From: Bacteroidales bacterium
GTDB taxonomy: Bacteria > Bacteroidota > Bacteroidia > Bacteroidales > VadinHA17
Assembly (NCBI GenBank): GCA_017999895.1
Contig: JAGNKY010000001.1
Coordinates: forward strand, 218,715 to 282,714
Reading direction: 5' to 3'
Length of the DNA: 64,000 nt
Part shown: one piece after another, positions 4,229-63,641 of the stretch
Numbering within the stretch: the stretch's first letter is position 1
Layout: the number at the start of each line of letters is the position of its first letter
Notes under the pieces: generated by a model
Databases searched by the model: none
What the model was told of the DNA's origin: nothing
The model's input: the letters and a program-made list of their open reading frames with translations, nothing else
Position numbers and translations under genes: made by a program

Positions 4229-5443
4229 TTAGGATGCTTTCAGCACCTTAATATCTATTTTCTCAAGCTTATGCTTTGCATAATCAGTAGTTATTGTAAG
4301 CTCATCGGCATTTCTCGAAGGCATATCAAACATTGCATCGAGCATAATAGCTTCGCATATTGATCTCAGACCTCTTGCACCAAGTTTAAACTCAATGGCT
4401 TTATCTACAATATAGTCAAGAGCTTCGTCGGTAAATGTGAGGTCAATATTGTCCATTTTGAAGAGTTTAATGTACTGTTTTATTATTGCATTTTTAGGTT
4501 CGGTCAGGATAGATCTAAGAGCATGGCGGTCGAGCGGGTGGAGATGGGCAATCACCGGGAGTCTTCCTATTATTTCGGGTATCATTCCGTATGCCTTAAG
4601 ATCTTGTGGGGCAATATATTGAAGCAAATTATCCTTATCAATTATTTCTCTGGTTCGTGATGCACCATAACCAACAACTGTTGTATTGAGCCTTTGGGCA
4701 ATTTTCTTTTCGATACCCTCGAAAGCTCCTCCACAGATGAAAAGTATGTTTTTGGTATCAACCGGTATCATTTTCTGTTCAGGGTGTTTTCTGCCACCCT
4801 GTGGCGGAACATTTACAATTGAGCCTTCGAGCAGTTTAAGCAATCCCTGTTGCACACCCTCGCCTGAAACATCCCTGGTTATTGATGGATTATCGCTTTT
4901 TCTGGCAATCTTATCAATTTCATCAATAAATACAATACCTCTTTCTGCGGCTTTGACGTCATAATCGGCGTTCTGAAGTAGCCTTGTGAGGAGGCTTTCT
5001 ACATCTTCTCCCACATAACCTGCTTCGGTAAGTACGGTTGCATCGACTATTGTAAAAGGCACATGAAGCATCCGTGCGATGGTCCTTGCAAGCAATGTCT
5101 TGCCCGTACCTGTTTCGCCGACAAGAAGTATATTTGACTTTTCGATTTCTATATCCTGGTCGTCCTGTTTCTGAATCAATCGTTTATAATGGTTATAGAC
5201 TGCGACCGAAATAATCTTTTTTGCTCTTTCCTGTCCGATAACATATTGATCGAGAAATGATTTTATTTCAGCAGGTTTGAGCAGATTTATAGAGTCGAAA
5301 GAAGAACTATGTCTTGGTCCAAGCTCTTCAGTCATTATACTGTAAGCCTGTTCAATGCAATGGTCACATATATGACCTTCAAGGCCGGCGACGAGTATAT
5401 TAGCCTCTTTTTTTGTTCGTCCACAGAAAGAACATCTATCCAT
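4229..5443 (-). CDS. clpX: ATP-dependent Clp protease ATP-binding subunit ClpX
   Basis: 404 aa. N-terminal zinc ribbon CSFCG...CDHC, Walker A GETGTGKT, and full-length ClpX-like sequence. Confidence 0.97.
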
Positions 5444-5448
5444 TTTTA

Positions 5449-6129
5449 TTAGCGATTTTTCGACTTTTGTAGCACTTCATCGATCATTCCATAATCTTTT
5501 GCTTCCTGGGCAGTCATCCAATAATCCCTGTCGGCGTCCTTTTCAACTTTAGAGTATGGCACACCTGTATGATATGAGATAATTTCGTAGAGTTCTTTTT
5601 TAAGTTTTACAATTTCTCTTGCGGTTATTTCTATATCCGAAGCATGGCCTTCCACACCACCCATAGGTTGATGAATCATAATACGTGAATGCTGTAGTGC
5701 TGAACGTTTTCCTTTAGTTCCTGCGCCAAGAAGAACGGCTCCCATTGAGGCAGCCATTCCTGTACATATAGTAGCAACATCGGCAGAAATGTACTGCATT
5801 GTGTCGTAAATACCCAGGCCTGCATGAACGGCACCCCCCGGTGTATTGAAATAAATCTGAATATCTTTTCCCGGATCCGTAGAATCAAGGTAAAGAAGCT
5901 GTGCCTGAATGATATTTGCAGCATAATCGTCAATCGGCAGTCCGAGGAAAATTATTCTGTCCATCATAAGACGTGAAAAAACATCCATTGTAGCCACATT
6001 AAGTTGTCTTTCCTCTATGATGGTAGGTGAGATATAGTTGTCTGAAGCGGAAATATATTGTTGCAGCGTCAGGCTACTTATACCCATCCGGCTTCTTGCG
6101 AATTTACTGAAATCGTCAGAATTACTCAT
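5449..6129 (-). CDS. clpP: ATP-dependent Clp protease proteolytic subunit
   Basis: 226 aa. ClpP catalytic context ([17 protein letters not shown]). Lies between tig and clpX. Confidence 0.97.
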
Positions 6130-6195: not shown

Positions 6196-7545
6196 TTATT
6201 TGAATAAGTTATTGAACTCTTCAACAGTAACTTGTTTATTTTCAATAGTAACCATTTCCTTAAGTTTTTCTAAAGCCTTTTCTTCAAGGATTTTGTCTGC
6301 AATTCTTTGTGCCTCTTCCTCATTATTAATCATCTCCTTTGCATATTTAGTTATTTGTTCGTCAGTTGCATAGAAAAGGCCATACTGATAGAATTGACGG
6401 CGAGCTATATTTTCAGCTTCTTTTATCACATCATCGGCGTCTATTTTTATATTATTGTCGCGTGCAACTTTATTGCGTATAAGCTTCCATTTAAGGTCGT
6501 TAAGAAAAGAATCGAATTCCTTTTCTATTTCCTCGGCTGTTGTTTTTTCATTAATTTTTAAAAGCCATTTTTTCAAAAAATCTTCTGGGAGATCCAGGTT
6601 TGTTTTTTCCATCAAAAGATTTTTTAAGTCGAACTTAAGTTTATAATTGCTTTCATTATTTAGAGATGCCGCAATTTCTTCATCTATTTTTTTATAGAAT
6701 TCTTCCTCAGTTGTAACAACATTTTCGCCGTAGATGAGGTCAAAAAGTTCCTGATTTATTTCGGCAGGCTGGAACCTTGAGATTTCAGAAACCGTGAATT
6801 TATAAATACCATCTGCTTTTTCTGCCTGCTCCTTTGTGATATTAAGAAGTCCGGCAATTTCGTTTTCATTTGGGAAAGCCTTTTTCAGGTCGAAGTTTAC
6901 AGAATCGCCTGGTGCTAAACCTATGAACTGTTTTTTAATGTCTTCATCCTTAATTAATGTAGCCGATAATGTTGCGTTATCATTTCTGAAAGTTTCCTTT
7001 TCTGCTTCTATATTATTTTCAGCTGGTACTATGCTTCCTTTAAGGATGTCATTTTCTTCCGATTTGTCGGCACTGACAAACTTTCCATATTGTCGGGCAT
7101 AGTTGTCAATATAGTTATTTCTCAGCTTTTCATCAATTAATATTTCATAAAAAGTCACTTTATCATCTTTGCCTACTTCTATATTGAATTCAGGTTCGAG
7201 CCCAACTTCGAATGTAAAGGTAAAATCTTCTGCCATTTCAAAATTTTTATTCTCCATATTGTTTTCATGAGGCAGAGGGTCGCCAAGTATTCGGATATTT
7301 TCACTCTGCAGGTAGTTTGCGATGCTTTCTGAAACCAATTTGTTTATTTCTTCAAGTTTAACTGCATTACCAAACATTTTTCTTATCAATCCGATTGGCA
7401 CCATTCCTGGTCTAAAACCTTTAATATTGGCTCTTTTCCTGTATTCTTTTAGAGATTTTTCAACGTTTTCTTCATAGTCAGCCTTATTAAGCTCGACTTT
7501 CAGTATGGCGTTCAGTTTATCGATGTTTTCTTTTGTTATATTCAT
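6196..7545 (-). CDS. tig: trigger factor
   Basis: The ORF track runs to 7644 but that extension reads into the tRNA. The ATG at 7545 (MNITKENIDKLNA...) gives a typical ~449-aa trigger factor with the GFRPGMVP motif. Part of a tig-clpP-clpX operon. Confidence 0.92.
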   Translation of the reverse strand: MNITKENIDKLNAILKVELNKADYEENVEKSLKEYRKRANIKGFRPGMVPIGLIRKMFGNAVKLEEINKLVSESIANYLQSENIRILGDPLPHENNMENKNFEMAEDFTFTFEVGLEPEFNIEVGKDDKVTFYEILIDEKLRNNYIDNYARQYGKFVSADKSEENDILKGSIVPAENNIEAEKETFRNDNATLSATLIKDEDIKKQFIGLAPGDSVNFDLKKAFPNENEIAGLLNITKEQAEKADGIYKFTVSEISRFQPAEINQELFDLIYGENVVTTEEEFYKKIDEEIAASLNNESNYKLKFDLKNLLMEKTNLDLPEDFLKKWLLKINEKTTAEEIEKEFDSFLNDLKWKLIRNKVARDNNIKIDADDVIKEAENIARRQFYQYGLFYATDEQITKYAKEMINNEEEAQRIADKILEEKALEKLKEMVTIENKQVTVEEFNNLFK

Positions 7546-12942: not shown

Positions 12943-13092
12943 CTATTCATTATTCGACATTCCTTGTTCGACATTCAATATTCGGTCTTTCTTTTTAGGT
13001 ATTCTTCATTCGACGTTCCTTGTTCGATCTTCGTTTAACGTTATCGTTTATAGGTAAAATGTGACTGTATAATTTTTTACCCTGCCTGTTGC

Positions 13093-47292: not shown

Positions 47293-47383
47293 GGCAGAGG
47301 GCATAGGGCTGAGAGCAAAGGGTAAAATTATACTGCAATCCACGCTATTCTCCTCGTTCTTAGCTCTTTGCTCTCAGCCCTTT
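47293..47383. repeat. heptanucleotide-array hairpin element, copy A
   Basis: GGCAGAG GGCATAG GGCTGAG AGCAAAG, a 28-nt spacer, then TCTCCTC GTTCTTA GCTCTTT GCTCTCA GCCCTTT. It contains a perfect 15-bp inverted repeat (47306-47320 / 47366-47380). Confidence 0.8.
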
Positions 47384-47435: not shown

Positions 47436-47455
47436 TTGCGGCCTGTGAAAGGATA
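47436..47455 (+). promoter_or_regulatory. conserved cassette box 1 (TTGCGGCCTGTGAAAGGATA)
   Basis: The 20-mer occurs 4 times in the window, always 47-48 nt upstream of a precursor-peptide ATG. Confidence 0.6.
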
Positions 47456-47503
47456 CAGCAGGAAAAAGTAAAAAATAAATTGTTTAACTAAAAACATAAA
47501 ATT

Positions 47504-47761
47504 ATGAAAAAATTAAGTAAATTGCAGATTAATCCGGAAAGAATTATGAAGAATGAAGAACTGAAAATTCTGAGAGGTGGAGATTATGACTCTGGTTGTG
47601 GGAATTATACAGAGTGGTTTTGTGATGTGCATTACGATGGAGTTTATGCTTTTTCAGGCATAGCCTGTGGCACACAAGAATATATTTCTGGTGTCTGTCA
47701 ACAACTAAATTATGAATGTTCTTGTACACAAACATGGACTCCCATGCCTATCATTAATTAG
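47504..47761 (+). CDS. double-glycine-leader Cys-rich peptide precursor P1 (26-aa leader + 59-aa core, 6 Cys)
   Basis: The leader MKKLSKLQINPERIMKNEELKILRGG is conserved with three paralogues. The core has 6 Cys and ends in an NYECSC motif. The gene sits immediately upstream of the propeller/C39-ABC/HlyD genes. Confidence 0.85.
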   Translation: MKKLSKLQINPERIMKNEELKILRGGDYDSGCGNYTEWFCDVHYDGVYAFSGIACGTQEYISGVCQQLNYECSCTQTWTPMPIIN

Positions 47762-49181: not shown

Positions 49182-51479
49182 ATGTCCGAATTTCCTTTCT
49201 TCAAGCAGCTCGATTCCATGGATTGCGGTCCGACGTGTCTGCGCATGATAGCCAGGTTTTACGGGAAATCATATTCATTACAATATCTGCGTTCAAGGTC
49301 ATTTCTTACAAAAGCGGGTGTTTCGATGCTTGGCATCAGTGAGGCAGCCGAGAGCATCGGTTTCCGCACCCGCGGCTACCGCCTCACCTGGGAACAACTA
49401 CGTGACGAGGTACCACTCCCATGTATTGTTCACTGGAGTCAAAGGCATTTTGTCGTAGTGTACAATATCGAGAAGAAGAAGAAAGCTTGGGGCTTGGGGC
49501 GGAGGGCGGAGGGCAGAGTGCGGAGAGCAAAGGATATGGAGCAGGGAGCAAGAGGCGAAGAGCGCAGAGCATACAATTCAGAAACCATAGTTTATGTTGC
49601 CGATCCTGCCTCCGGTCTTCTTAAATACACCAGAGATGAGTTCCTTAAATGCTGGTATAGTACGAAAACCGATGGTGTTCAGGAAGGCGCCGCACTGTTG
49701 CTGGAGCCGTCACCTGATTTCTACCGCCAGGAAGACGAAGAAAAGGGTAAACTTAAATTCACATATCTGCTTGGTTATATAAAGCCTTACAAAAAGTTCA
49801 TCCTGCAGCTTATGCTTGGAATGCTCACCGCAAGCATAATCAGCCTTATATTTCCTTTTCTTACACAATCTCTTGTTGATACCGGTATCGGAAACAGCAA
49901 CATTGCATTTGTCATTCTGGTTCTTGTCGCCCAGTTGATACTTAGTCTCAGCCAGACAGCCAACGGACTGCTGCGTAACTGGATAAGCCTACACGTCACA
50001 AGCAGGATAAGCATCTCCCTTATATCTGATTTTCTAATTAAACTGATGAGACTTCCTATTTCGTTCTTCGATACAAAAATGATCGGAGATATAATGCAAA
50101 GAATAGGCGACCATAACCGCATAAAAACATTCCTTACCGATTCTCTTATCAGTATAATATTTGCCGTTATTACTCTAGTTATGTACACCATTATTATGGC
50201 TACATATAACCTTGCGATACTCGGAGTCTTTCTTGTCGGCAGTGCCTTATACATAGGCTGGGTCGTTCTTTTTCTCAAACGCCGCCGCGAACTCGATTAC
50301 AAGCGTTTTCAGCAAAGCGCGGCTAACCAGAGCAACATAGTACAGCTTATTACAGGGATGCAGGAGATAAAGCTTAACAACTGTGAGAAACAAAAACGGT
50401 GGGAATGGGAAAGGATACAGATAAAGCTCTTTAAGGTAAGCTTAAAGAGTATGATGCTTAACCAGAATCAGCAGCTCGGAGCAGTTTTGATAAACCAGAC
50501 GAAAGATATCTTTATTTCCTTCCTCTCGGCTATGGCTGTCATTCGCGGCGAGATGACCCTTGGTATGATGATGGCCGTTCAGTATATAATAGGTCAGCTC
50601 AATGCACCGATACAACAATTCATCGGTTTTACTCAGGCGGCTCAGGATGCAAGGATAAGCCTCGAGCGGCTTGGCGAGATACACAACCGTGAGGATGAGG
50701 AGAAGCCGGAAGACTATAAGATAAGAGACATTCCTGTAGATAAAGATATAGAGATAAAAAACCTTGTTTTTCAGTACGAAGGTCCTCATTCTGAAAAAGT
50801 ACTGGATGACATTTCGTTGGTTATTCCGGCAAAAGGTGTAACAGCTATTGTTGGAACAAGTGGAAGCGGTAAAACAACACTTATAAAGTTGCTGCTTGGG
50901 TTTTATGCTCCCGTGAAAGGGGGAATCTATCTGAACGGGACTCCTCTCAACCGGTTCAGCCAGAGTGAGTGGCGCAAAAGGTGCGGTGTTGTAATGCAGG
51001 AAGGATTCATCTTTTCCGATACTATTGCCGGAAACATAGGACTGATAGATGAAATTCCCGACAGGGAAAAGATAGACAAGGCATCCGATACGGCTAACAT
51101 CAAAGATTTTATCGAGGGCCTGCCGCTTGGGTATAATACCAGAATCGGCAATGACGGACATGGTCTGAGTACAGGTCAGAAACAAAGGATACTGATTGCC
51201 CGGGCAGTTTATAAAGAGCCTGATTTTATCTTTTTTGATGAGGCAACCAACGCTCTTGATGCAAAAAACGAAAAGACAATTATGGACAATCTGGGCAGCT
51301 TTTTTGAGGGTAAAACGGTTGTGATTGTTGCACACCGTTTGAGCACTGTAAAGAATGCCGATCAGATAGTGGTTCTCGAAAAAGGCAAGATAGTGGAGAA
51401 AGGAACGCATAATGAACTTGTTAAGATGAAAGGGGCGTATTATAACCTTGTGAAAGATCAGCTGGAACTGGGGAATTGA
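49182..51479 (+). CDS. peptidase-C39 domain ABC transporter (bacteriocin-type exporter) carrying an in-frame repeat insertion
   Basis: 765 aa. C39 triad context (QLDSMDCGPTC, HWSQRHFVVV, VADPASG), 6 TM helices, Walker A GTSGSGKTT, signature LSTGQKQR, Walker B IFFDEAT. Confidence 0.92.
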   Translation: MSEFPFFKQLDSMDCGPTCLRMIARFYGKSYSLQYLRSRSFLTKAGVSMLGISEAAESIGFRTRGYRLTWEQLRDEVPLPCIVHWSQRHFVVVYNIEKKKKAWGLGRRAEGRVRRAKDMEQGARGEERRAYNSETIVYVADPASGLLKYTRDEFLKCWYSTKTDGVQEGAALLLEPSPDFYRQEDEEKGKLKFTYLLGYIKPYKKFILQLMLGMLTASIISLIFPFLTQSLVDTGIGNSNIAFVILVLVAQLILSLSQTANGLLRNWISLHVTSRISISLISDFLIKLMRLPISFFDTKMIGDIMQRIGDHNRIKTFLTDSLISIIFAVITLVMYTIIMATYNLAILGVFLVGSALYIGWVVLFLKRRRELDYKRFQQSAANQSNIVQLITGMQEIKLNNCEKQKRWEWERIQIKLFKVSLKSMMLNQNQQLGAVLINQTKDIFISFLSAMAVIRGEMTLGMMMAVQYIIGQLNAPIQQFIGFTQAAQDARISLERLGEIHNREDEEKPEDYKIRDIPVDKDIEIKNLVFQYEGPHSEKVLDDISLVIPAKGVTAIVGTSGSGKTTLIKLLLGFYAPVKGGIYLNGTPLNRFSQSEWRKRCGVVMQEGFIFSDTIAGNIGLIDEIPDREKIDKASDTANIKDFIEGLPLGYNTRIGNDGHGLSTGQKQRILIARAVYKEPDFIFFDEATNALDAKNEKTIMDNLGSFFEGKTVVIVAHRLSTVKNADQIVVLEKGKIVEKGTHNELVKMKGAYYNLVKDQLELGN
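49485..49575 (+). repeat. 13-unit heptanucleotide array embedded in frame in the C39 domain
   Basis: GCTTGGG GCTTGGG GCGGAGG GCGGAGG GCAGAGT GCGGAGA GCAAAGG ATATGGA GCAGGGA GCAAGAG GCGAAGA GCGCAGA GCATACA. It encodes AWGLGRRAEGRVRRAKDMEQGARGEERRAY between the catalytic His and Asp. Confidence 0.85.
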
Positions 51480-51573
51480 TGCTTTTGCCTCTCCCGGCAC
51501 TCCCAAAATGGGGAGGTGTAGCGTGGTATAAGAGAAATAAGCCCCCCATTTTTGGGGGTTGGGGGGCAAAATA

Positions 51574-52899
51574 ATGGGATGTCAAACAGATAAAACTTAC
51601 ATGCCGGAACTTAACAAACAAGAGATTCGCAGTCCTGAGATGCAGGAGGTGATGTCGGGGATACCCGGAAGTATTATTAGATGGGGGTTGTTCATCTTTT
51701 TTGGTATAGTAATAATCTTTATTGCAGGGAGTTACTTTATAAAAAATCCCGAGATTGTTACAGTTCCTGTTGTTATTACCACTCAGAATCCGCCGGTTTC
51801 CATTGTTGCAAAATCAGGGGGCGAGATAGATAAATTATATGTTTCGGAAGGCTCGACGGTCGGGGAAGACGATGTTATAGCATTAATAAGTAACACATGC
51901 AATTATGACGACGAGAAAAGGCTTAAACGGTTCATTTCAGTCTTCGATGATAAGACGGACTGGGCAGTTATTGTTCGTATGCAACAGTCTCCTCCCGACC
52001 TGTCGTTAGGTGAAATACAAAGCGAATATGTCAGTTTTCAGAAAGTATGGAAAGAGATGAAGGATTATCTCGATCAGGCATATATTCCTTCAAAGCTGAG
52101 TCTTCTTGAAGAGCAAATAACCAGAAAGAAAGAATATAACGATGAGCTTGTCCGTCAGAAGGAGCTTCTTACGGAAGATCTTCTTCTTACAAGAAACAGT
52201 TTTGAACGCGATTCCATTCTATTTCATAGGCAGAGTTATTCGATATCGGTAAATGAATTTGAGAAATCGAGGCAGGCTTATATTCAGAAGCAATATTCCT
52301 ACAGTGTTTTCAATGCATCGCTAAAAAATAATGAGGCGGAATTTTTGCGTCTTAATGAAACACGGCTTGACCTGGAGATACAATATGAAAAAGAGCTGAA
52401 GCAATACATTTTTGCTATTGAAGAGTCGCTTCAGTTACTGAGGAGTTCAATATCACAGTGGGAAGAAAAGTATTTGATTAGAAGTCCGGTAGAAGGGAAA
52501 GTTACATTTAACAGGACACGGTATGAGAATCAGTCAATAAAGGTAGGAGAAACTTTTGCTGTGGTTATACCCGGTAATGCTTCTGAGGTTATTGCACGTG
52601 CAGTTATACCTGTGTCCGGATTTGGGAAGGTCAACACAGGGCAGTCTGTTAACATAAAGCTTTCCGGCTTTCCATATATGCAATATGGAGTATTGAAGGG
52701 AAGGATTTATTCCGTATCACAGGTACCCGGTGAGGAAGGTTTTATTGCAGAGATAGAGCTTACCGGGGGAATGACGTCAACATACAGGGAAAAAATAAGG
52801 TTCATTCATGAAATGAGCGGAACAGCCGATATTATTACCGGTAACAGCAGGCTGTTATATAGGTTTATTAAACCGATAAGAAGCATAATAAGCGAATAA
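51574..52899 (+). CDS. HlyD-family membrane fusion/adaptor protein
   Basis: N-terminal TM segment, a long coiled coil, and a C-terminal beta-barrel (GMTSTYREKIRF...GTADIITG), typical of bacteriocin-exporter accessory proteins. The start is ATG 51574 or 51601; the ORF track used TTG 51559. Confidence 0.88.
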   Translation: MGCQTDKTYMPELNKQEIRSPEMQEVMSGIPGSIIRWGLFIFFGIVIIFIAGSYFIKNPEIVTVPVVITTQNPPVSIVAKSGGEIDKLYVSEGSTVGEDDVIALISNTCNYDDEKRLKRFISVFDDKTDWAVIVRMQQSPPDLSLGEIQSEYVSFQKVWKEMKDYLDQAYIPSKLSLLEEQITRKKEYNDELVRQKELLTEDLLLTRNSFERDSILFHRQSYSISVNEFEKSRQAYIQKQYSYSVFNASLKNNEAEFLRLNETRLDLEIQYEKELKQYIFAIEESLQLLRSSISQWEEKYLIRSPVEGKVTFNRTRYENQSIKVGETFAVVIPGNASEVIARAVIPVSGFGKVNTGQSVNIKLSGFPYMQYGVLKGRIYSVSQVPGEEGFIAEIELTGGMTSTYREKIRFIHEMSGTADIITGNSRLLYRFIKPIRSIISE

Positions 52900-52935: not shown

Positions 52936-52995
52936 TGTCCGGTTTTGACCGATATTGTCCGATATTGTCCGATTTTGACCGAAAATTACCGAAAA
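52936..52995. repeat. six tandem degenerate 10-bp repeats (TKWCCGRWWW)
   Basis: TGTCCGGTTT TGACCGATAT TGTCCGATAT TGTCCGATTT TGACCGAAAA TTACCGAAAA, starting 37 nt after the hlyD stop. Confidence 0.8.
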
Positions 52996-53089
52996 TTTCC
53001 CATTATTTTTTGTTGTTATTTGAAACTATTTGCTTAACTTTTTATCCGTTAGCTGTTAAAAGGTTATAGTGAAACATCAATGATAATAG

Positions 53090-53386
53090 GGAACGGATAT
53101 AAGGTTTTCGAGAGTTGACGAACGTCTTAAGCGTATTGCAAATGTTCTGCTCATTAATGCCAGTTTTACCGACAACCTTGGACTATTATACGGTAAAATG
53201 GGGATCGCGATATTTTTATATCAATATAATTTTGAATATAATAGAAAGGCAAGGTCAGAAATATTGGCAGAGGGCATAGGGCTGAGAGCAAAGGGCAAAA
53301 TTATACTGCAATCAACACTGTTCTCCTCGTTCTTTGCCCTCCGTTCTTTGCCCTTAGCCTTCAGCCACTTAACAGAGAGGAGGTAA
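53090..53386 (+). pseudogene. start-less open frame: LanC-like N-terminal fragment fused in frame to heptad element copy B
   Basis: After a TGA TAA TAG triple stop, the frame reads ...RLKRIANVLLINASFTDNLGLLYGKMGIAIFLYQYN... This GLL-G-K-x-GIA-hydrophobic pattern resembles the first helical repeat of LanC-like cyclases. The frame then runs through the repeat. Confidence 0.3.
53266..53370. repeat. heptanucleotide-array hairpin element, copy B
   Basis: The left arm is identical to copy A. The right arm is TCTCCTC GTTCTTT GCCCTCC GTTCTTT GCCCTTA GCCTTCA GCCACTT. About 190 nt (53253-53441) are homologous to 47282-47455. Confidence 0.8.
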
Positions 53387-53421
53387 GCCTATGTGCAGAT
53401 AATACTATCCCGTGCCTTCTG

Positions 53422-53441
53422 TTGCGGCCTGTGAAAAGATA
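53422..53441 (+). promoter_or_regulatory. conserved cassette box 2 (TTGCGGCCTGTGAAAAGATA)
   Basis: 19/20 match to box 1, 47 nt upstream of the P2 ATG. Confidence 0.6.
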
Positions 53442-55208: not shown

Positions 55209-56560
55209 GAGGGTGTTCAAAAAAGTGTGTCAAAGAGTAAGTAATAAAAAATAGATTTGACACATGGAAAATAAGGAACGAAAACGGACGCCTCGAATAG
55301 AGGAACTGATTCCTGACTCTGAGAGGCGGGAGCAGGTATTAAACAGGTTATACAAAGGGGAACCCATACTTGGGGATGGAGGCATATTTACAGAAATGCT
55401 TCAAGCCTTTGTCAATGCAGCCCTTGAAGGGGAGATGGATCATCATCTGAAAGGGGGAAAAGGTGGATGCCAGGGCAACAGGCGCAACGGTCATACGCAC
55501 AAGGTAGTAAGAAGCACAGCAGGTCCATTTGAAGTTCATACTCCCCGGGACCGGGATGGGGAACACGAACCCATTCTGATTAAGAAATGGGAAAGGGAAC
55601 TTGGGACCGGTCTGGATGATATCATACTGAGTTTATATGCACGAGGACAATCGGTTGAAGATGTTCGGTATCAGTTGCGCAGGTTGTATGGATTAGAAGT
55701 GAGCGCAGGAGCGATAAGTGCGGTTACCGACCGTGTCTGGAGCGAGATTACCCAATGGCAGGAAAGGCCTCTGTCACCATTACAGGTAATAGTTTACCTG
55801 GATGCAATTCATTACAAGGTAAGGGAATCAGGTCAGATTATCTCCAAGGCGATATATACGGTTTATGGGGTAGATGTAAATGGAGAGCGAGATGTACTTG
55901 GGCTTTATCTGAGCGACAATGAAGGCTCGCGACAATGGGGTCTCATCCTTGAAGATATCAAGCGCAGAGGAGTGGATGATGTCTTATTCTTTTGTGTAGA
56001 TGGGCTTAAGGGGTTCAAAGAGGTGATTGAACAGGTATATCCTGAATCGATCCTGCAGCGCTGTATTGTTCATATGGTGCGAACATCGACACGGTTTGTA
56101 AGTGACAAAGATATTAAGGCAGTGTGTTCAGATCTGCGCAAAATTTACTCTTCAGCAGACAGGCAGCATGCGGAAATTGCCATGGAAGCCTTTGGTGAAA
56201 AATGGGGCAAATACCCTGAGATAAAGCCAAAATGGGAAGAGAACTGGGAAGAGTTGATGGCATTTATGGATTATAGCTCCAATATCCGCAGGATGATTTA
56301 TACGACCAATCCAGTAGAAGCTCTTCACCGAATTATGCGCAAGGTCACAAAAACAAAAGGAGCATGGATCAATGACAAGGGATTATTAAAACAGCTATAT
56401 TTAGCACTTAAGTACAACGAAAAAAGCTGGAAACGTAAAGCCTTCAACTGGCTTCCGATCCATAGAGAGCTCATTGAAAAGTTTGGAGACAGGTATGCAA
56501 AATTTGTTGTCCAATAAGTTTACCCGAAAAAGAAAATGACACACTTTTTTGAACATACCC
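55209..56560 (+). mobile_element. intact IS256-family insertion sequence (1352 bp)
   Basis: Terminal inverted repeats GAGGGTGTTCAAAAAAGTGTGTCA (left) and TGACACACTTTTTTGAACATACCC (right), with 19 bp perfect. Flanked by the 8-bp direct repeat TTGCCCGC (55201-55208 and 56561-56568). Confidence 0.9.
55264..56517 (+). CDS. IS256-family (mutator-type) transposase
   Basis: 417 aa and full length. DAIHYKV...CVDGLKGF...IVHMVR...IYTTNPVEALH are typical of Transposase_mut. Confidence 0.93.
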   Translation: MENKERKRTPRIEELIPDSERREQVLNRLYKGEPILGDGGIFTEMLQAFVNAALEGEMDHHLKGGKGGCQGNRRNGHTHKVVRSTAGPFEVHTPRDRDGEHEPILIKKWERELGTGLDDIILSLYARGQSVEDVRYQLRRLYGLEVSAGAISAVTDRVWSEITQWQERPLSPLQVIVYLDAIHYKVRESGQIISKAIYTVYGVDVNGERDVLGLYLSDNEGSRQWGLILEDIKRRGVDDVLFFCVDGLKGFKEVIEQVYPESILQRCIVHMVRTSTRFVSDKDIKAVCSDLRKIYSSADRQHAEIAMEAFGEKWGKYPEIKPKWEENWEELMAFMDYSSNIRRMIYTTNPVEALHRIMRKVTKTKGAWINDKGLLKQLYLALKYNEKSWKRKAFNWLPIHRELIEKFGDRYAKFVVQ

Positions 56561-56763
56561 TTGCCCGCCGTATCCGCCGGCTGGCAGAGAAGGCGGGTGC
56601 CCTCTGCCCTGCGCTCCTTGCTCTCCCGAATCTCGGGACTGCGTCGCTTCGCTCCTTGTGTGCTCTGTGCCAATCTTTCGCAGTCTTTCAATCAGCTACA
56701 GCTTGCAAAGCTTCCGCCTCTTTCCTTCTGCCTATCGCCTTTCGCCTTCTTCCCTGACTTCGG
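56561..56763. repeat. heptad element copy C, right part
   Basis: C/T-rich heptads (TCTGCCC TGCGCTC CTTGCTC ... TGCCTAT CGCCTTT CGCCTTC TTCCCTG). A ~48-nt core (56663-56710) is shared with copy D. Confidence 0.75.
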
Positions 56764-57279: not shown

Positions 57280-58617
57280 ATGTTAAATTTATTTACTAAT
57301 CAATTAAATATAATTAATAAATTAATTTTCCCAATCTGTCTGATTGTCTTATTAATAGCGTCACGCTGCTTATCAAAAAGGCCGATAAATATATTACCGC
57401 TTATTGATATAGAAGCAAATATAAATAATATGCAGAAAGTTTATCTCAGTGAATTTACCGATAATATATGGTATGTTCCTCTTGAAAGTAATCCAGACTT
57501 TTTATTATACTGGACTTATAATAACTTATCGGATTTCTCCGAAAACTATATTTTGTATTCTGATGGAAAGATGTGCCTTCTATATGATAATGAGGGACGA
57601 TTTATCCGACCAATTGGCAAACAGGGCAGAGGTCCGGGAGAATATATAGGAATAGATTATATAGCATTGATAAATGAAAAAATATTTATACATGACTATT
57701 TTACCGATGATCTATTAGAATATAATATTGATGGAACTTTTATAAACCGTAACAAGAGTGGTTTTACTGGACATGACAAATACCGTCTGAGAGATGCAAT
57801 TATGATAAATGATTCAATGATTTTCGGAAATATTCAAAACTATACAGGTCATGAAGAATATAAGGCTTTGATTGTTGATAAAAAGGGGAACATTAAATAT
57901 CCTTATAAAAACTATATTTTCTTTGACTTAAAACCTGGTGTGCCACATGCTCAGGAAATGGGGGAGGGTGCAATATTCTCCAGATTTGGAGAAATAATTT
58001 ACTTTAAAGAACCATTTAATGATACCTTATTCCAGATTGATAATCAATTTCGACTTATACCTTTTTATATTTTTAACTTTGGTAAATACAAGTTTCCACT
58101 ATCAGAAAGGGGTAAAGCCTGGGCCGATATAGATCTTTCTTCATATATTTTTTTGAATGAAATTTTTCAGACAAAAAACTATTTATTTGTTTCATGTAGA
58201 TTAGGTAAGTATTTTCCAGCAAAAAGAATAACGCCTGAAATAATACGTACACCGAGTAATAAAGATTATATCCAATGGTATAACACACAATCGGTATTAG
58301 GTATTTTTGATGAGAGAAAAGGAGATATTGTTTTCTCTGAGCCTACCAGTACAAACAATCACTTATTTACATCAGGGATTTACAATGATATTGATGCAGG
58401 ACCAAGATTTTTCCCCGATAAGATGGTAAATGATTCAACTATGATGATGAAAATCAAATTTGACTATCTTGTAGAACATATTGAAAGCAATGATTTTAAA
58501 TATAATATTCCGAAATATCCTGAAAGAAAGAAAAAACTTGAAATGCTTGTAGATAGTCTGAAAAAGGTTGAATTTGATAATCCTGTATATATGTTTGTAA
58601 CCTTTAAGTCTAAATGA
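57280..58617 (+). CDS. exported six-bladed beta-propeller protein, paralogue 4
   Basis: 445 aa. TM/signal with Cys (IASRC), GRGPGEY, NDIDAGPRFFP, tail DNPVYMFVTFKSK. Confidence 0.85.
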   Translation: MLNLFTNQLNIINKLIFPICLIVLLIASRCLSKRPINILPLIDIEANINNMQKVYLSEFTDNIWYVPLESNPDFLLYWTYNNLSDFSENYILYSDGKMCLLYDNEGRFIRPIGKQGRGPGEYIGIDYIALINEKIFIHDYFTDDLLEYNIDGTFINRNKSGFTGHDKYRLRDAIMINDSMIFGNIQNYTGHEEYKALIVDKKGNIKYPYKNYIFFDLKPGVPHAQEMGEGAIFSRFGEIIYFKEPFNDTLFQIDNQFRLIPFYIFNFGKYKFPLSERGKAWADIDLSSYIFLNEIFQTKNYLFVSCRLGKYFPAKRITPEIIRTPSNKDYIQWYNTQSVLGIFDERKGDIVFSEPTSTNNHLFTSGIYNDIDAGPRFFPDKMVNDSTMMMKIKFDYLVEHIESNDFKYNIPKYPERKKKLEMLVDSLKKVEFDNPVYMFVTFKSK

Positions 58618-58660
58618 AATTCCCTTTCTTCAAGCAGCTCGATTCCATGGATTGCGGCAA
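58614..58660 (+). pseudogene. orphan 5' end (15 codons) of a C39-ABC transporter gene
   Basis: ATGAAATTCCCTTTCTTCAAGCAGCTCGATTCCATGGATTGCGG encodes MKFPFFKQLDSMDCG. Positions 58623-58657 are 35/35 identical to 49194-49228. It overlaps the propeller stop, as the intact gene does, then runs directly into heptad element D. Confidence 0.8.
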
Positions 58661-58828
58661 GACCTTTCTCTGCCAATCCTTCGCTGTCTTTCAGCCAGCT
58701 AAGGCTTACAAAGTCTGAGCTCTGTGCTCCTTGCCCTCAGCCCTTCGCCCTGTGCCCTGCGCTCTGTGCTTCGTGCCTCACGCCTCTCGCGTCACGCCTC
58801 ATGCCTCACACCTTTTCCGTGCCTCCGA
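58661..58828. repeat. heptad element copy D (13 consecutive NNGCYCT units at 58717-58807)
   Basis: GAGCTCT GTGCTCC TTGCCCT CAGCCCT TCGCCCT GTGCCCT GCGCTCT GTGCTTC GTGCCTC ACGCCTC TCGCGTC ACGCCTC ATGCCTC, preceded by the core shared with copy C (58668-58713). Confidence 0.85.
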
Positions 58829-58848
58829 TTGCGGCCTGTGAAAGGATA
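58829..58848 (+). promoter_or_regulatory. conserved cassette box 4 (TTGCGGCCTGTGAAAGGATA)
   Basis: Identical to boxes 1 and 3, 47 nt upstream of the ATG at 58896. Positions 58829-58926 match 56764-56861 at 97 of 98 nt. Confidence 0.6.
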
Positions 58849-63555: not shown

Positions 63556-63588
63556 TGAAGAATAATTTGAAGATGAGGAGAATGGGAA

Positions 63589-63641
63589 ATGACTACTGAA
63601 TGACTACTGAATGACCATTGAATGACCATTGAATGACATTC
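63589..63641. repeat. 11-bp tandem repeat, about 4.8 copies (ATGACYAYTGA)
   Basis: ATGACTACTGA ATGACTACTGA ATGACCATTGA ATGACCATTGA ATGACATTC, in the E2-E1 intergenic spacer. Confidence 0.85.

Follow-up and report, generated by a model that had tools for sequence, protein, structure and literature searches.

A degenerate heptanucleotide repeat array read in frame within the C39 protease domain of a Bacteroidales peptide exporter, at a turn hypervariable among orthologues

Intergenic repeats are occasionally found inside coding sequences, and here we describe such a case in a 64,000-nt stretch of DNA from a Bacteroidales bacterium (assembly GCA_017999895.1, contig JAGNKY010000001.1, positions 218,715 to 282,714 of the forward strand; hereafter the window, with positions counted from its first letter). 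Within a bacteriocin locus, a gene at 49182-51479 (+ strand) encodes a peptidase-containing ATP-binding cassette transporter (PCAT), and a tandem array of 13 seven-nucleotide units (heptads; 49485-49575, + strand) is read in frame inside its C39 protease domain. The array is probably one copy of a GC-rich mosaic repeat that is specific to the clade and dispersed in it, here translated within a permissive β-turn and tolerated by the protease. Furthermore, the turn that hosts it, between the strands bearing the catalytic His and Asp, is, judging from the alignments, the main place of large length change among orthologues of the exporter.

An earlier note made on this DNA had placed 13 heptads in frame between the two catalytic strands, and both sequence and phasing bear this out. 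The array reads GCTTGGG GCTTGGG GCGGAGG GCGGAGG GCAGAGT GCGGAGA GCAAAGG ATATGGA GCAGGGA GCAAGAG GCGAAGA GCGCAGA GCATACA (consensus G-C-D-N-R-G-R), with 12 of the 13 heptads opening with GC. Its composition, 64% G+C and 76% purine, compares with 44% G+C in the rest of the exporter gene and 37.7% G+C in the window, and no array of at least four heptad units was produced in 50 shuffles of the window. Tandem Repeats Finder (TRF) picks up only the first ~7 units (49485-49533), with 86-100% matches (2.3 copies at 100%, 4.1 copies at 86%); the distal units are degenerate yet hold the GC phase, and only two identical adjacent pairs are found in the whole array. Translation enters the repeat exactly at codon A102 and gives the peptide AWGLGRRAEGRVRRAKDMEQGARGEERRAY, which ends at Y131 (49485-49574, 90 nt), base 49575 opening the codon of N132. 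The array is thus located between H89 (49446-49448) and D141 (49602-49604), in a spacer of 41 residues, 30 of which are repeat-encoded. It is without a stop codon in all six frames; in heptad arrays generally, stop codons are rare because T is scarce on the purine strand, as are A and G on its complement.

The host protein (765 aa) has the C39, transmembrane and nucleotide-binding domains of its family, as indicated by Pfam (Peptidase_C39 PF03412, E 3e-30; ABC_membrane PF00664; ABC_tran PF00005), by its homologues in the PDB (PCAT1, ComA and LahT150) and by the 8000 homologues found in a homology search. The Pfam match to the protease covers residues 4-100 only (profile positions 2-99 of 133) and breaks at the insert. 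The catalytic residues were assigned by reference to the triad of ComA (Cys17/His96/Asp112). They are Cys15 (TGC, 49224-49226), in an invariant column and matched by the region around the catalytic Cys in ComA and LahT150; His89 (CAT), also invariant and in a region aligned with the same two proteins, which opens the β-strand 89-98 directly before the insert; and Asp141 (GAT), which closes the β-strand 135-141 behind it and is invariant together with P142. All three are unchanged in 40 of 40 aligned orthologues, despite very different loops.

The array is base-for-base identical in four other, independent assemblies from different samples (L162-L165: ERZ773283, GCA_035371065.1, GCA_035421605.1 and GCA_035419505.1), whose exporter genes differ from that of the window by a single substitution each. 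The longest matching locus (L162) shows 14 single-nucleotide differences and no insertion or deletion over 8.3 kb (99.8% identity). This identity excludes an assembly artefact, which the earlier note had named as a possible refutation; in addition, the open reading frame (ORF) is uninterrupted and dozens of orthologues have a homologous array at this very codon, so that the probability of an artefact or chimera is negligible, even though assemblies do break at heptad arrays. Such a break is seen in a related contig (L083, ERZ1026810 NODE-2141, 5334-5553), in which a heptad array is followed by the sequences of the Nextera transposase and the Illumina adapter (CTGTCTCTTATACACATCT...), an adapter contamination of a public assembly at a repeat-induced break. 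An apparently short array allele behind the stop codon of this locus, seen in comparison with L082, was rejected for this reason, as the contig enters the adapter inside the array.

The insert is also extra in comparison with the family baseline. In phmmer searches, the alignments with LahT150 (6mpz) and ComA (3k8u, 5xe8) stop at query residue 99 and that with PCAT1 (4ry2) at residue 98; weak second segments of ComA, in which the turn has five residues, restart at query residues 133-136. Orthologues with 59-66% identity have 5-9 residues between the HFVVVY and xVxVADP strands (KIKND, KISKKN, KIEKKRGQW), compared with 41 in the window. The solved C39 structures and the distant orthologues therefore agree with the statement, in the earlier note, that related transporters are short at this site. 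Its further proposal of an insertion into this exporter holds as far as this baseline is concerned but is too narrow, as the insertion is not private to the exporter and the site is an old hotspot used by varied modules throughout the clade.

The spacer was compared at 135 sites, taken from the window together with 160 related loci, of which some few hold two copies. The 120 best homologues of the exporter (77-86% identity, almost all from metagenome-assembled genomes, MAGs, of Bacteroidales) are 702-803 aa long, and their large internal length differences fall at the C39 turn, the shortest entries being also N-terminally truncated. In orthologues 67-86% identical, 10-80 residues are found at the site, encoded by heptads, by a hairpin module of the form C5-loop-G5-NN-G5 or by 9-nt repeats, and in the order of the tree the loop differs in nearly every lineage. 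Many of these loops are peptides with a period of seven residues (STEHRAQ..., EQGAGG..., EPCALSPEQ), as translated heptads look; at the DNA level the loops are GC-rich, with a lag-7 autocorrelation of 0.5-0.6, and their arrays open directly behind Lys/Arg codons (e.g., TTAAGAA GCGGAGG GCGTGGG GCAGGGA ...). In some relatives a purine arm is followed by a pyrimidine arm inside the coding sequence, forming strong hairpins (L005, z -5.0; L072, z -3.1), and some also add a 9-nt (GACCTGCAA)n module encoding DLQDLHDL. In a single cluster at 90% identity (that of P0005), the alleles have four different inserts or none. At the other extreme, the site is empty or near-empty in distant orthologues and holds almost no loop in P0113, P0104 and P0129. 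The earlier note had accepted that its claim would fail if orthologues commonly had unrelated loops of similar length here; this is partly the case, yet these loops are themselves repeat-derived insertions.

A natural pair of alleles illustrates how the length changes. The exporters of L161 and of L091, L092 and L095 are ~96% identical outside the loop; the former has 2 units and the latter three have 11, and the gap is exactly 63 nt, that is 9 heptads, in register. This is the arithmetic anticipated by the earlier note, in which the frame is kept only by changes in multiples of 3 units. In the alignment of L161 with L092, no target-site duplication or other footprint of transposition is visible at the array borders. 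As for elements of the RPE (Rickettsia palindromic element) or MITE (miniature inverted-repeat transposable element) type, an in-frame array occupies a site that is empty in relatives; a fixed-length consensus with inverted repeats was not found, the array of the window having no inverted arm, L005 and L072 both arms and other relatives the hairpin module.

Some further features of these loci were recorded during the survey. On one contig (L001), two paralogous exporters each have their own array at the C39 site (892-975 and 6283-6369; 84 and 87 nt, with different units). In L055 (6001-9012) and L056 (6001-9064), the match to the exporter extends over ~3.0 kb instead of 2.2 kb, which suggests an insertion of ~800 nt (insertion sequence, intron or joined paralogue) upstream of the His strand. 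Finally, near-identical exporters of Bacteroidales type are labelled as Methanomethylovorans sp., Spirochaetota, Aminicenantes and Clostridiales (P0140, i.e., MCC7575511.1; P0108; L068; L079), and these are probably binning contaminants rather than cases of horizontal transfer.

The kinship of the in-gene array with intergenic arrays, also claimed by the earlier note, is upheld by two nearly identical position matrices, one built from 158 units inside the gene and one from 373 further units. In the 34 arrays ascertained by TRF, the frequencies are 0.99 for G at position 1, 0.98 for C at position 2 and 0.93 for G at position 6, with A/T/G at position 3, C/G/A at position 4, A/G at position 5 and G/A at position 7; the unit is an RGRGC core plus two free bases. 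Since 7 and 3 are coprime, the conservation of heptad positions is independent of the codon phase. Elsewhere in the window, the in-gene array is matched best, in register and at 22/25, by the arrays at 47297 and 53270; it is of the same family, but no copy of them. The former is an intergenic array of 4 units (47294-47321, + strand) upstream of the GG-leader peptide gene at 47504-47761, and the latter an intergenic heptad hairpin (53267-53370, + strand) with a purine arm at 53267-53301 and a pyrimidine arm at 53331-53370. In an Rfam scan of 44-64 kb (E <= 1), the sole match was MIR529 at this hairpin (53259-53368), rejected as spurious at 28.5 bits against a gathering score of 75. The other members in the window are an intergenic array of 13 units that is purine-rich on the minus strand (58714-58809) and, behind an IS256-type transposase gene, two short arrays that are also on the minus strand (56594-56626 and 56711-56750); all heptad arrays of the window are confined to 47-59 kb. 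The sharing of unit variants between in-gene and intergenic arrays of the same locus, a sign of concerted evolution if present, did not reach significance (cosine 0.27 within and 0.20 between loci; permutation p = 0.089), being suggestive for L002, L003 and L092 only.

The second component of the family is the hairpin module, which in the window stands behind the exporter stop codon (51486-51570, + strand; core 51542-51566, CCCCCCATTTTTGGGGGTTGGGGGG) and had no match in shuffles of the window. It is found inside the C39 site in seven loci (L004, L007, L008, L065, L081, L102 and L103) and after or near exporters in L005 and L089, and a looser form of it explains the recurring PFSLGRRAGDEV, LPPWGKGRGRG and SPLSFWRGVGGEV loops in orthologues 67-84% identical. 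In L168 (7000-7400), between Fer4/CCG and SIS genes, a block of 5-11 heptads (GCACAGA/GCTCAGA) and a ~65-nt module with CCCCCTTCAGGGGGTTGGGGGTGG...GTGTAGAAGGGCTAT is repeated three times in tandem, so that heptads and hairpin module belong together outside bacteriocin loci as well. Arrays of the same type are also found at housekeeping loci in other Bacteroidales contigs (L166-L168); the heptad family appears to be dispersed in the clade and not specific to the bacteriocin locus. Further arrays start at the 3′ end of the exporter gene, inside unit-like coding sequence (GCTGGAACTGGGG), and repeat copies extend the 3′ ends of genes in L007 and L046. A search with heptad-encoded peptides returned at least 280 ORFs without recognised domains (57-146 aa), with few source names, mostly Bacteroidales MAGs; these ‘hypothetical proteins’, P0143-P0262 among them, appear to be translated stop-poor heptad arrays called as genes. 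Four of these matches were inspected; their loci are unrelated, and one of the four is probably eukaryotic. A match of this search, L169, was set aside, as it is a (GGAGCAG)23 microsatellite by a tRNA-like sequence on a gene-poor, probably eukaryotic contig with SPRY/ART genes.

Other short tandem repeats were noticed in the same genomes, and these Bacteroidales appear to be generally rich in repeats of 7-9 nt. Related loci contain further heptamer and octamer simple sequence repeats (SSRs), namely ACTGAAC, ACTTTCT, AGAAACG, GAAAGTA (20 copies), CAATTAG, GTTTAGT and GACCGCAA, at L002 6206-6316, L013 8337-8461 and 10710-10744, and L167 6079-6219, 7275-7312 and 12416-12580; the 8-mer GACCGCAA resembles the in-frame 9-mer GACCTGCAA of the DLQ module. 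In the window, TRF also reports a 10-nt repeat (TGTCCGATAT, 4.7 copies) at 52936-52997, just behind the HlyD stop codon, an 11-nt repeat (AATGACCACTG, 4.5 copies) at 63588-63637 and a 14/28-nt array (ATTCATTATTCGAC) at 12945-13027.

As regards the protein, the array would be translated as a hydrophilic, Arg/Gly/Glu/Ala-rich and disordered loop, as modelled, in a protease with an intact catalytic triad. In the AlphaFold2 model, the predicted local distance difference test score (pLDDT) falls below 50 for residues 102-132 only, compared with 66-86 in the C39 core, and the insert lies between the strands 89-98 and 135-141; from this model, only the local contrast in confidence within the C39 domain was used. 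Among the functional options of the earlier note, a tolerated loop would fit best, given the invariant triad and the low modelled confidence confined to the insert. The option of a crippled protease finds no support in the aligned sequences, in which the triad does not vary, and nothing suggests one in the rest of the locus, which is complete, with a GG-leader peptide gene, an HlyD-type partner, DUF5128 propeller genes and a VKOR-thioredoxin protein.

The history that we propose starts from a dispersed GC-rich mosaic repeat that would have colonised the C39 β-turn in an ancestor of the exporters of Bacteroidales/Marinilabiliales type. In the clade of the window, the heptad part would then have expanded, contracted and turned over locally, through slippage of whole units or unequal exchange. 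Coding sequence that resembles the units (AAGAAGCGGAGG at the turn, GCTGGAACTGGGG at the gene 3′ end) was probably the seed of this growth. Selection would have removed the outcomes that break the frame, leaving those that preserve it, and the product would be a disordered hydrophilic loop tolerated by the protease. The hairpin module could not grow from Lys codons, hence at least the hairpin part would have been inserted, and we infer that the original event was the insertion of a mosaic element and not purely growth in situ. Slippage as the mechanism of change and functional neutrality of the loop are, likewise, what the data seem to point to. The position and frame of the array, its kinship with the intergenic arrays, the hypervariability of the site across orthologues and the in-register indel of 9 units are, instead, directly observed, as are the stability among near-clonal assemblies, the intact triad and the low model confidence restricted to the insert.

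A number of observations weigh against this history or parts of it. The arrays opening at Lys/Arg codons (AAGAAGCGGAGG) and the unit-like gene ends (GCTGGAACTGGGG) favour a local seeding of the heptad part. The full-length AlphaFold2 model is too poor (mean pLDDT 47.5, predicted TM-score 0.32) to place the loop relative to the membrane-domain interface. Neutrality is challenged by the comparison of L091 with L092, in which the array diverges by 0.09 per site vs 0.33 at the flanking four-fold sites, in this one lineage pair, and 4 of the 9 array changes fall at heptad position 3; in the family as a whole, positions 1, 2 and 6 are near-invariant whatever the codon phase. Such unequal diversity across heptad positions does not come from slippage and neutral mutation alone, and a constraint at the nucleic acid level, or a biased turnover, therefore acts on the family.

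These same observations lend substance to the idea that the in-gene array is kept for a role as nucleic acid (a G-quadruplex, a purine-rich structure or a protein-binding lattice) which tunes transcription, translation or recombination of the operon, the peptide being a by-product. The conservation of G1, C2 and G6 at 93% or more, with positions 3-4 free and regardless of codon phase, and the low divergence of the L091/L092 arrays are what such a role would predict, and the arrays recur at fixed positions of the operon, upstream of peptide genes and right behind the exporter stop codon. The coding strand does literally contain, as the earlier note had reported, the G-quadruplex motif GGGG-CTT-GGGG-CGGA-GGG-CGGA-GGG (49489-49513, + strand; regular expression scan for (G3+ N1-7)x4), and the only two canonical motifs of the 64 kb both lie within heptad arrays, the other being at 58714-58809; G-quadruplex-forming heptamer repeats near gene ends are documented in other bacteria (PMC4692102). 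By inspection, the motif is also present in the arrays of L001, L002, L003 and L092. However, it follows automatically from four or more consecutive GCNNRGG units, and just ~45-57% of the units have a G at position 7, so many arrays are without four G3 tracts and quadruplex formation is no full explanation of the constraint. With the G-quadruplex option, ViennaRNA predicts for the array a two-layer quadruplex with a small gain of -3.8 to -7 kcal/mol over the fold without it, and the fold z-score of the region, which has no inverted arm, is -0.42. Moreover, in many members of the clade the site is free of heptads or is taken up by hairpin or 9-nt modules, and in some, such as the three proteins mentioned above, it holds almost no loop, so that no single structure is conserved, and the low divergence is based on one lineage pair. 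All in all we regard this role as unlikely, if worth keeping in view. A bolder version, in which RGRGC-NN heptads and C5-loop-G5-NN-G5 hairpins form an actively maintained nucleic acid system, a lattice recognised by a protein or through its structure, with the copy in the C39 domain as a functional cis element, seems to us somewhat harder still to credit. If it were true, the core positions would be held by selection or templated turnover, the array would be no passive junk, and the element in the C39 domain (quadruplex, pause site or recombination hotspot) would couple exporter expression or cassette shuffling to the bacteriocin locus.

Two further explanations would give the array a role through the reading frame or through the peptide. 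The earlier note had considered a phase-variable (contingency) switch, in which slippage by other than multiples of 3 units shifts the frame of the exporter and turns export off or on. The unit length of 7, no multiple of 3, would allow it; both shifted forward frames are open through the array and stop by ~49592 and ~49624, truncating the protein after ~135-147 residues, length differences between lineages come in whole units, and the family does include perfect arrays in other places (14 copies of GCACAGA in L046), so it can be slippage-active. Here, however, the units are degenerate, with just two identical adjacent pairs and 86% matches over 4 units in TRF; the same unit number is found in five near-clonal copies (the window and the four other assemblies); none of ~39 clade loci has a frameshift at the site; the array lies in the middle of a domain, whereas classical contingency genes have theirs close to the 5′ end; and lengths differ only between lineages with about one third of the four-fold sites changed, with the frame preserved. 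The switch thus goes unsupported and is very improbable. Hardly less doubtful is an adaptive loop, a charged flexible arm for protease docking, leader selection or partner binding, with hypervariability as the outcome of diversifying selection. Its position between two catalytic strands, the presence of a different loop in nearly every lineage and a protein-level change about three times that of the flanks (5/33 vs ~5% amino acid differences) would agree with it, but composition is not conserved (Arg/Gly/Glu-rich in the window, elsewhere acidic DLQ repeats, STEHRAQ, EPCALSPEQ or PFSLGRRAGD), conservation tracks the heptad phase and not the codons, alleles with almost no loop coexist at 90% identity or more, and the domain is cytoplasmic by homology with PCAT1, with the loop modelled as disordered. 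A tolerated, translated copy of a dispersed mosaic repeat thus remains the reading that we prefer.

The surroundings of the exporter are those of a bacteriocin export locus. The GG-leader of the nearby peptide gene (47504-47761) ends in ...NEELKILRGG, and the partner gene, matching HlyD_3 in Pfam, is listed at 51559-52899; its translation probably begins not at the listed TTG (51559) but with an ATG at 51603 (MPELNK), the start also seen in L002 and L004. The intercistronic region between exporter and HlyD gene (51480-51602) forms a GC-rich hairpin pair (-42.9 kcal/mol), and relatives have 7-34 heptad units there. The IS256/Mutator-family transposase gene mentioned above (55264-56517; Pfam E 5e-90) lies within the bacteriocin island, with the two short heptad arrays downstream. 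A remnant of a junction between propeller end and exporter start is found at 58590-58660, after a propeller gene at 57280-58617, and retains the first 16-17 exporter codons (FFKQLDSMDCG); beyond it homology stops and the 13-unit array in the opposite orientation comes next, which suggests a deleted second exporter or a duplicated module. An origin of this remnant (~58590-58655) by deletion at the in-gene array was considered and is unsupported, as the homology is lost at codon 16-17, which is still ~250 nt short of the array position. Finally, the motif TTGCGGCCTGTGAAA(G/A)GATA recurs at 47437-47456, 53420-53440 and 58825-58845 inside a conserved leader of ~100 nt. Each GG-leader peptide gene follows the motif at a distance of 50-70 nt, and a heptad hairpin precedes the motif; this leader could be a promoter or a leader RNA, and Rfam gave no match for it.

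This case shows that an enzyme can stably harbour, in its catalytic domain, a tandem repeat with a unit length not divisible by three; a single β-turn has become hypervariable and repeat-encoded across a whole clade. The result is a natural series of insertions of ~0 to 80 residues that separate the His strand from the Asp strand, of use in engineering and in studies of domain docking. At the genome level, a previously uncharacterised mosaic family of heptads and hairpins in uncultured Bacteroidales breaks assemblies and probably yields many spurious calls of ‘hypothetical proteins’, and the phase-independent conservation of its heptad positions raises the testable question of what maintains the arrays.

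In comparison with known systems, the exporter itself is a typical PCAT. Like PCAT1, ComA and LahT (4ry2, 3k8u, 6mpz), it combines C39, transmembrane and nucleotide-binding domains, retains the Cys/His/Asp triad and has a GG-leader substrate gene and an HlyD-type gene nearby; unlike the solved members, in which the His-Asp turn is tight (about five residues, GSQNN, in ComA), it has 41 residues there, of which 30 are repeat-encoded. Contingency repeats, as in Haemophilus and Neisseria, have perfect units, usually lie close to the 5′ end and vary between sibling isolates. The present array shares with them the location inside an ORF and a unit that is no multiple of 3, and differs in being degenerate, mid-domain and invariant in five near-clonal copies. 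Heptanucleotide repeats are given as the commonest long SSR class in many prokaryotes where Mrázek et al. (2007) are cited in PMC4679880. The TAACTGA and STRR heptamer repeats of Beggiatoaceae, cyanobacteria and a few Bacteroidetes (MacGregor, 2015; PMC4679880) are, like those studied here, intergenic direct repeats near start or stop codons, and other heptamer SSRs occur in our related loci; their sequence is, however, unrelated, they carry stop codons in the forward orientation and they are almost always intergenic. Closer in kind are GGGNATC and GGGGA(C/T)T, the G-quadruplex-forming heptameric SSRs of Xanthomonas and Nostoc (Rehm et al., 2015; PMC4692102), which share a 7-nt unit with a G-tract, 2 to more than 20 units, a mostly intergenic location, transcription with operons, frequent placement tens of bases from a stop codon or upstream of an ORF and, sometimes, an inverted tandem pair. 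The series of at least four G3 tracts with loops of up to 7 nt that their units provide is found here at 49489-49513; the RGRGC-NN unit is nonetheless far more degenerate, belongs to Bacteroidota and contains GGG in about half of the copies, and its quadruplex is a predicted one.

The in-frame fusion of intergenic repeats into ORFs is, on the other hand, well established for RPEs and others (PMC3184786). RPEs, as they are presented in a review (Ogata et al., 2000, in Delihas, 2011, PMC3184786), resemble the present family in that mainly intergenic repeats also lie within coding genes, where they are read through without a stop and the protein is not destroyed. They are, however, palindromic units of 105-146 bp with one insertion per site, whereas here tandem degenerate 7-nt units, joined in relatives by a 25-35-nt hairpin module, change in copy number and composition between lineages at one fixed site, and no target duplications or terminal inverted repeats are seen. 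A literature search on RGRGC-NN heptads or on insertions into PCAT loops in Bacteroidetes found no specific description. What is new in relation to these systems is the combination of a degenerate array with a unit that is not a multiple of 3, its membership in a Bacteroidales family of hairpins and heptads, and its fixed position at the turn between the catalytic strands of C39, where it is hypervariable across the clade.

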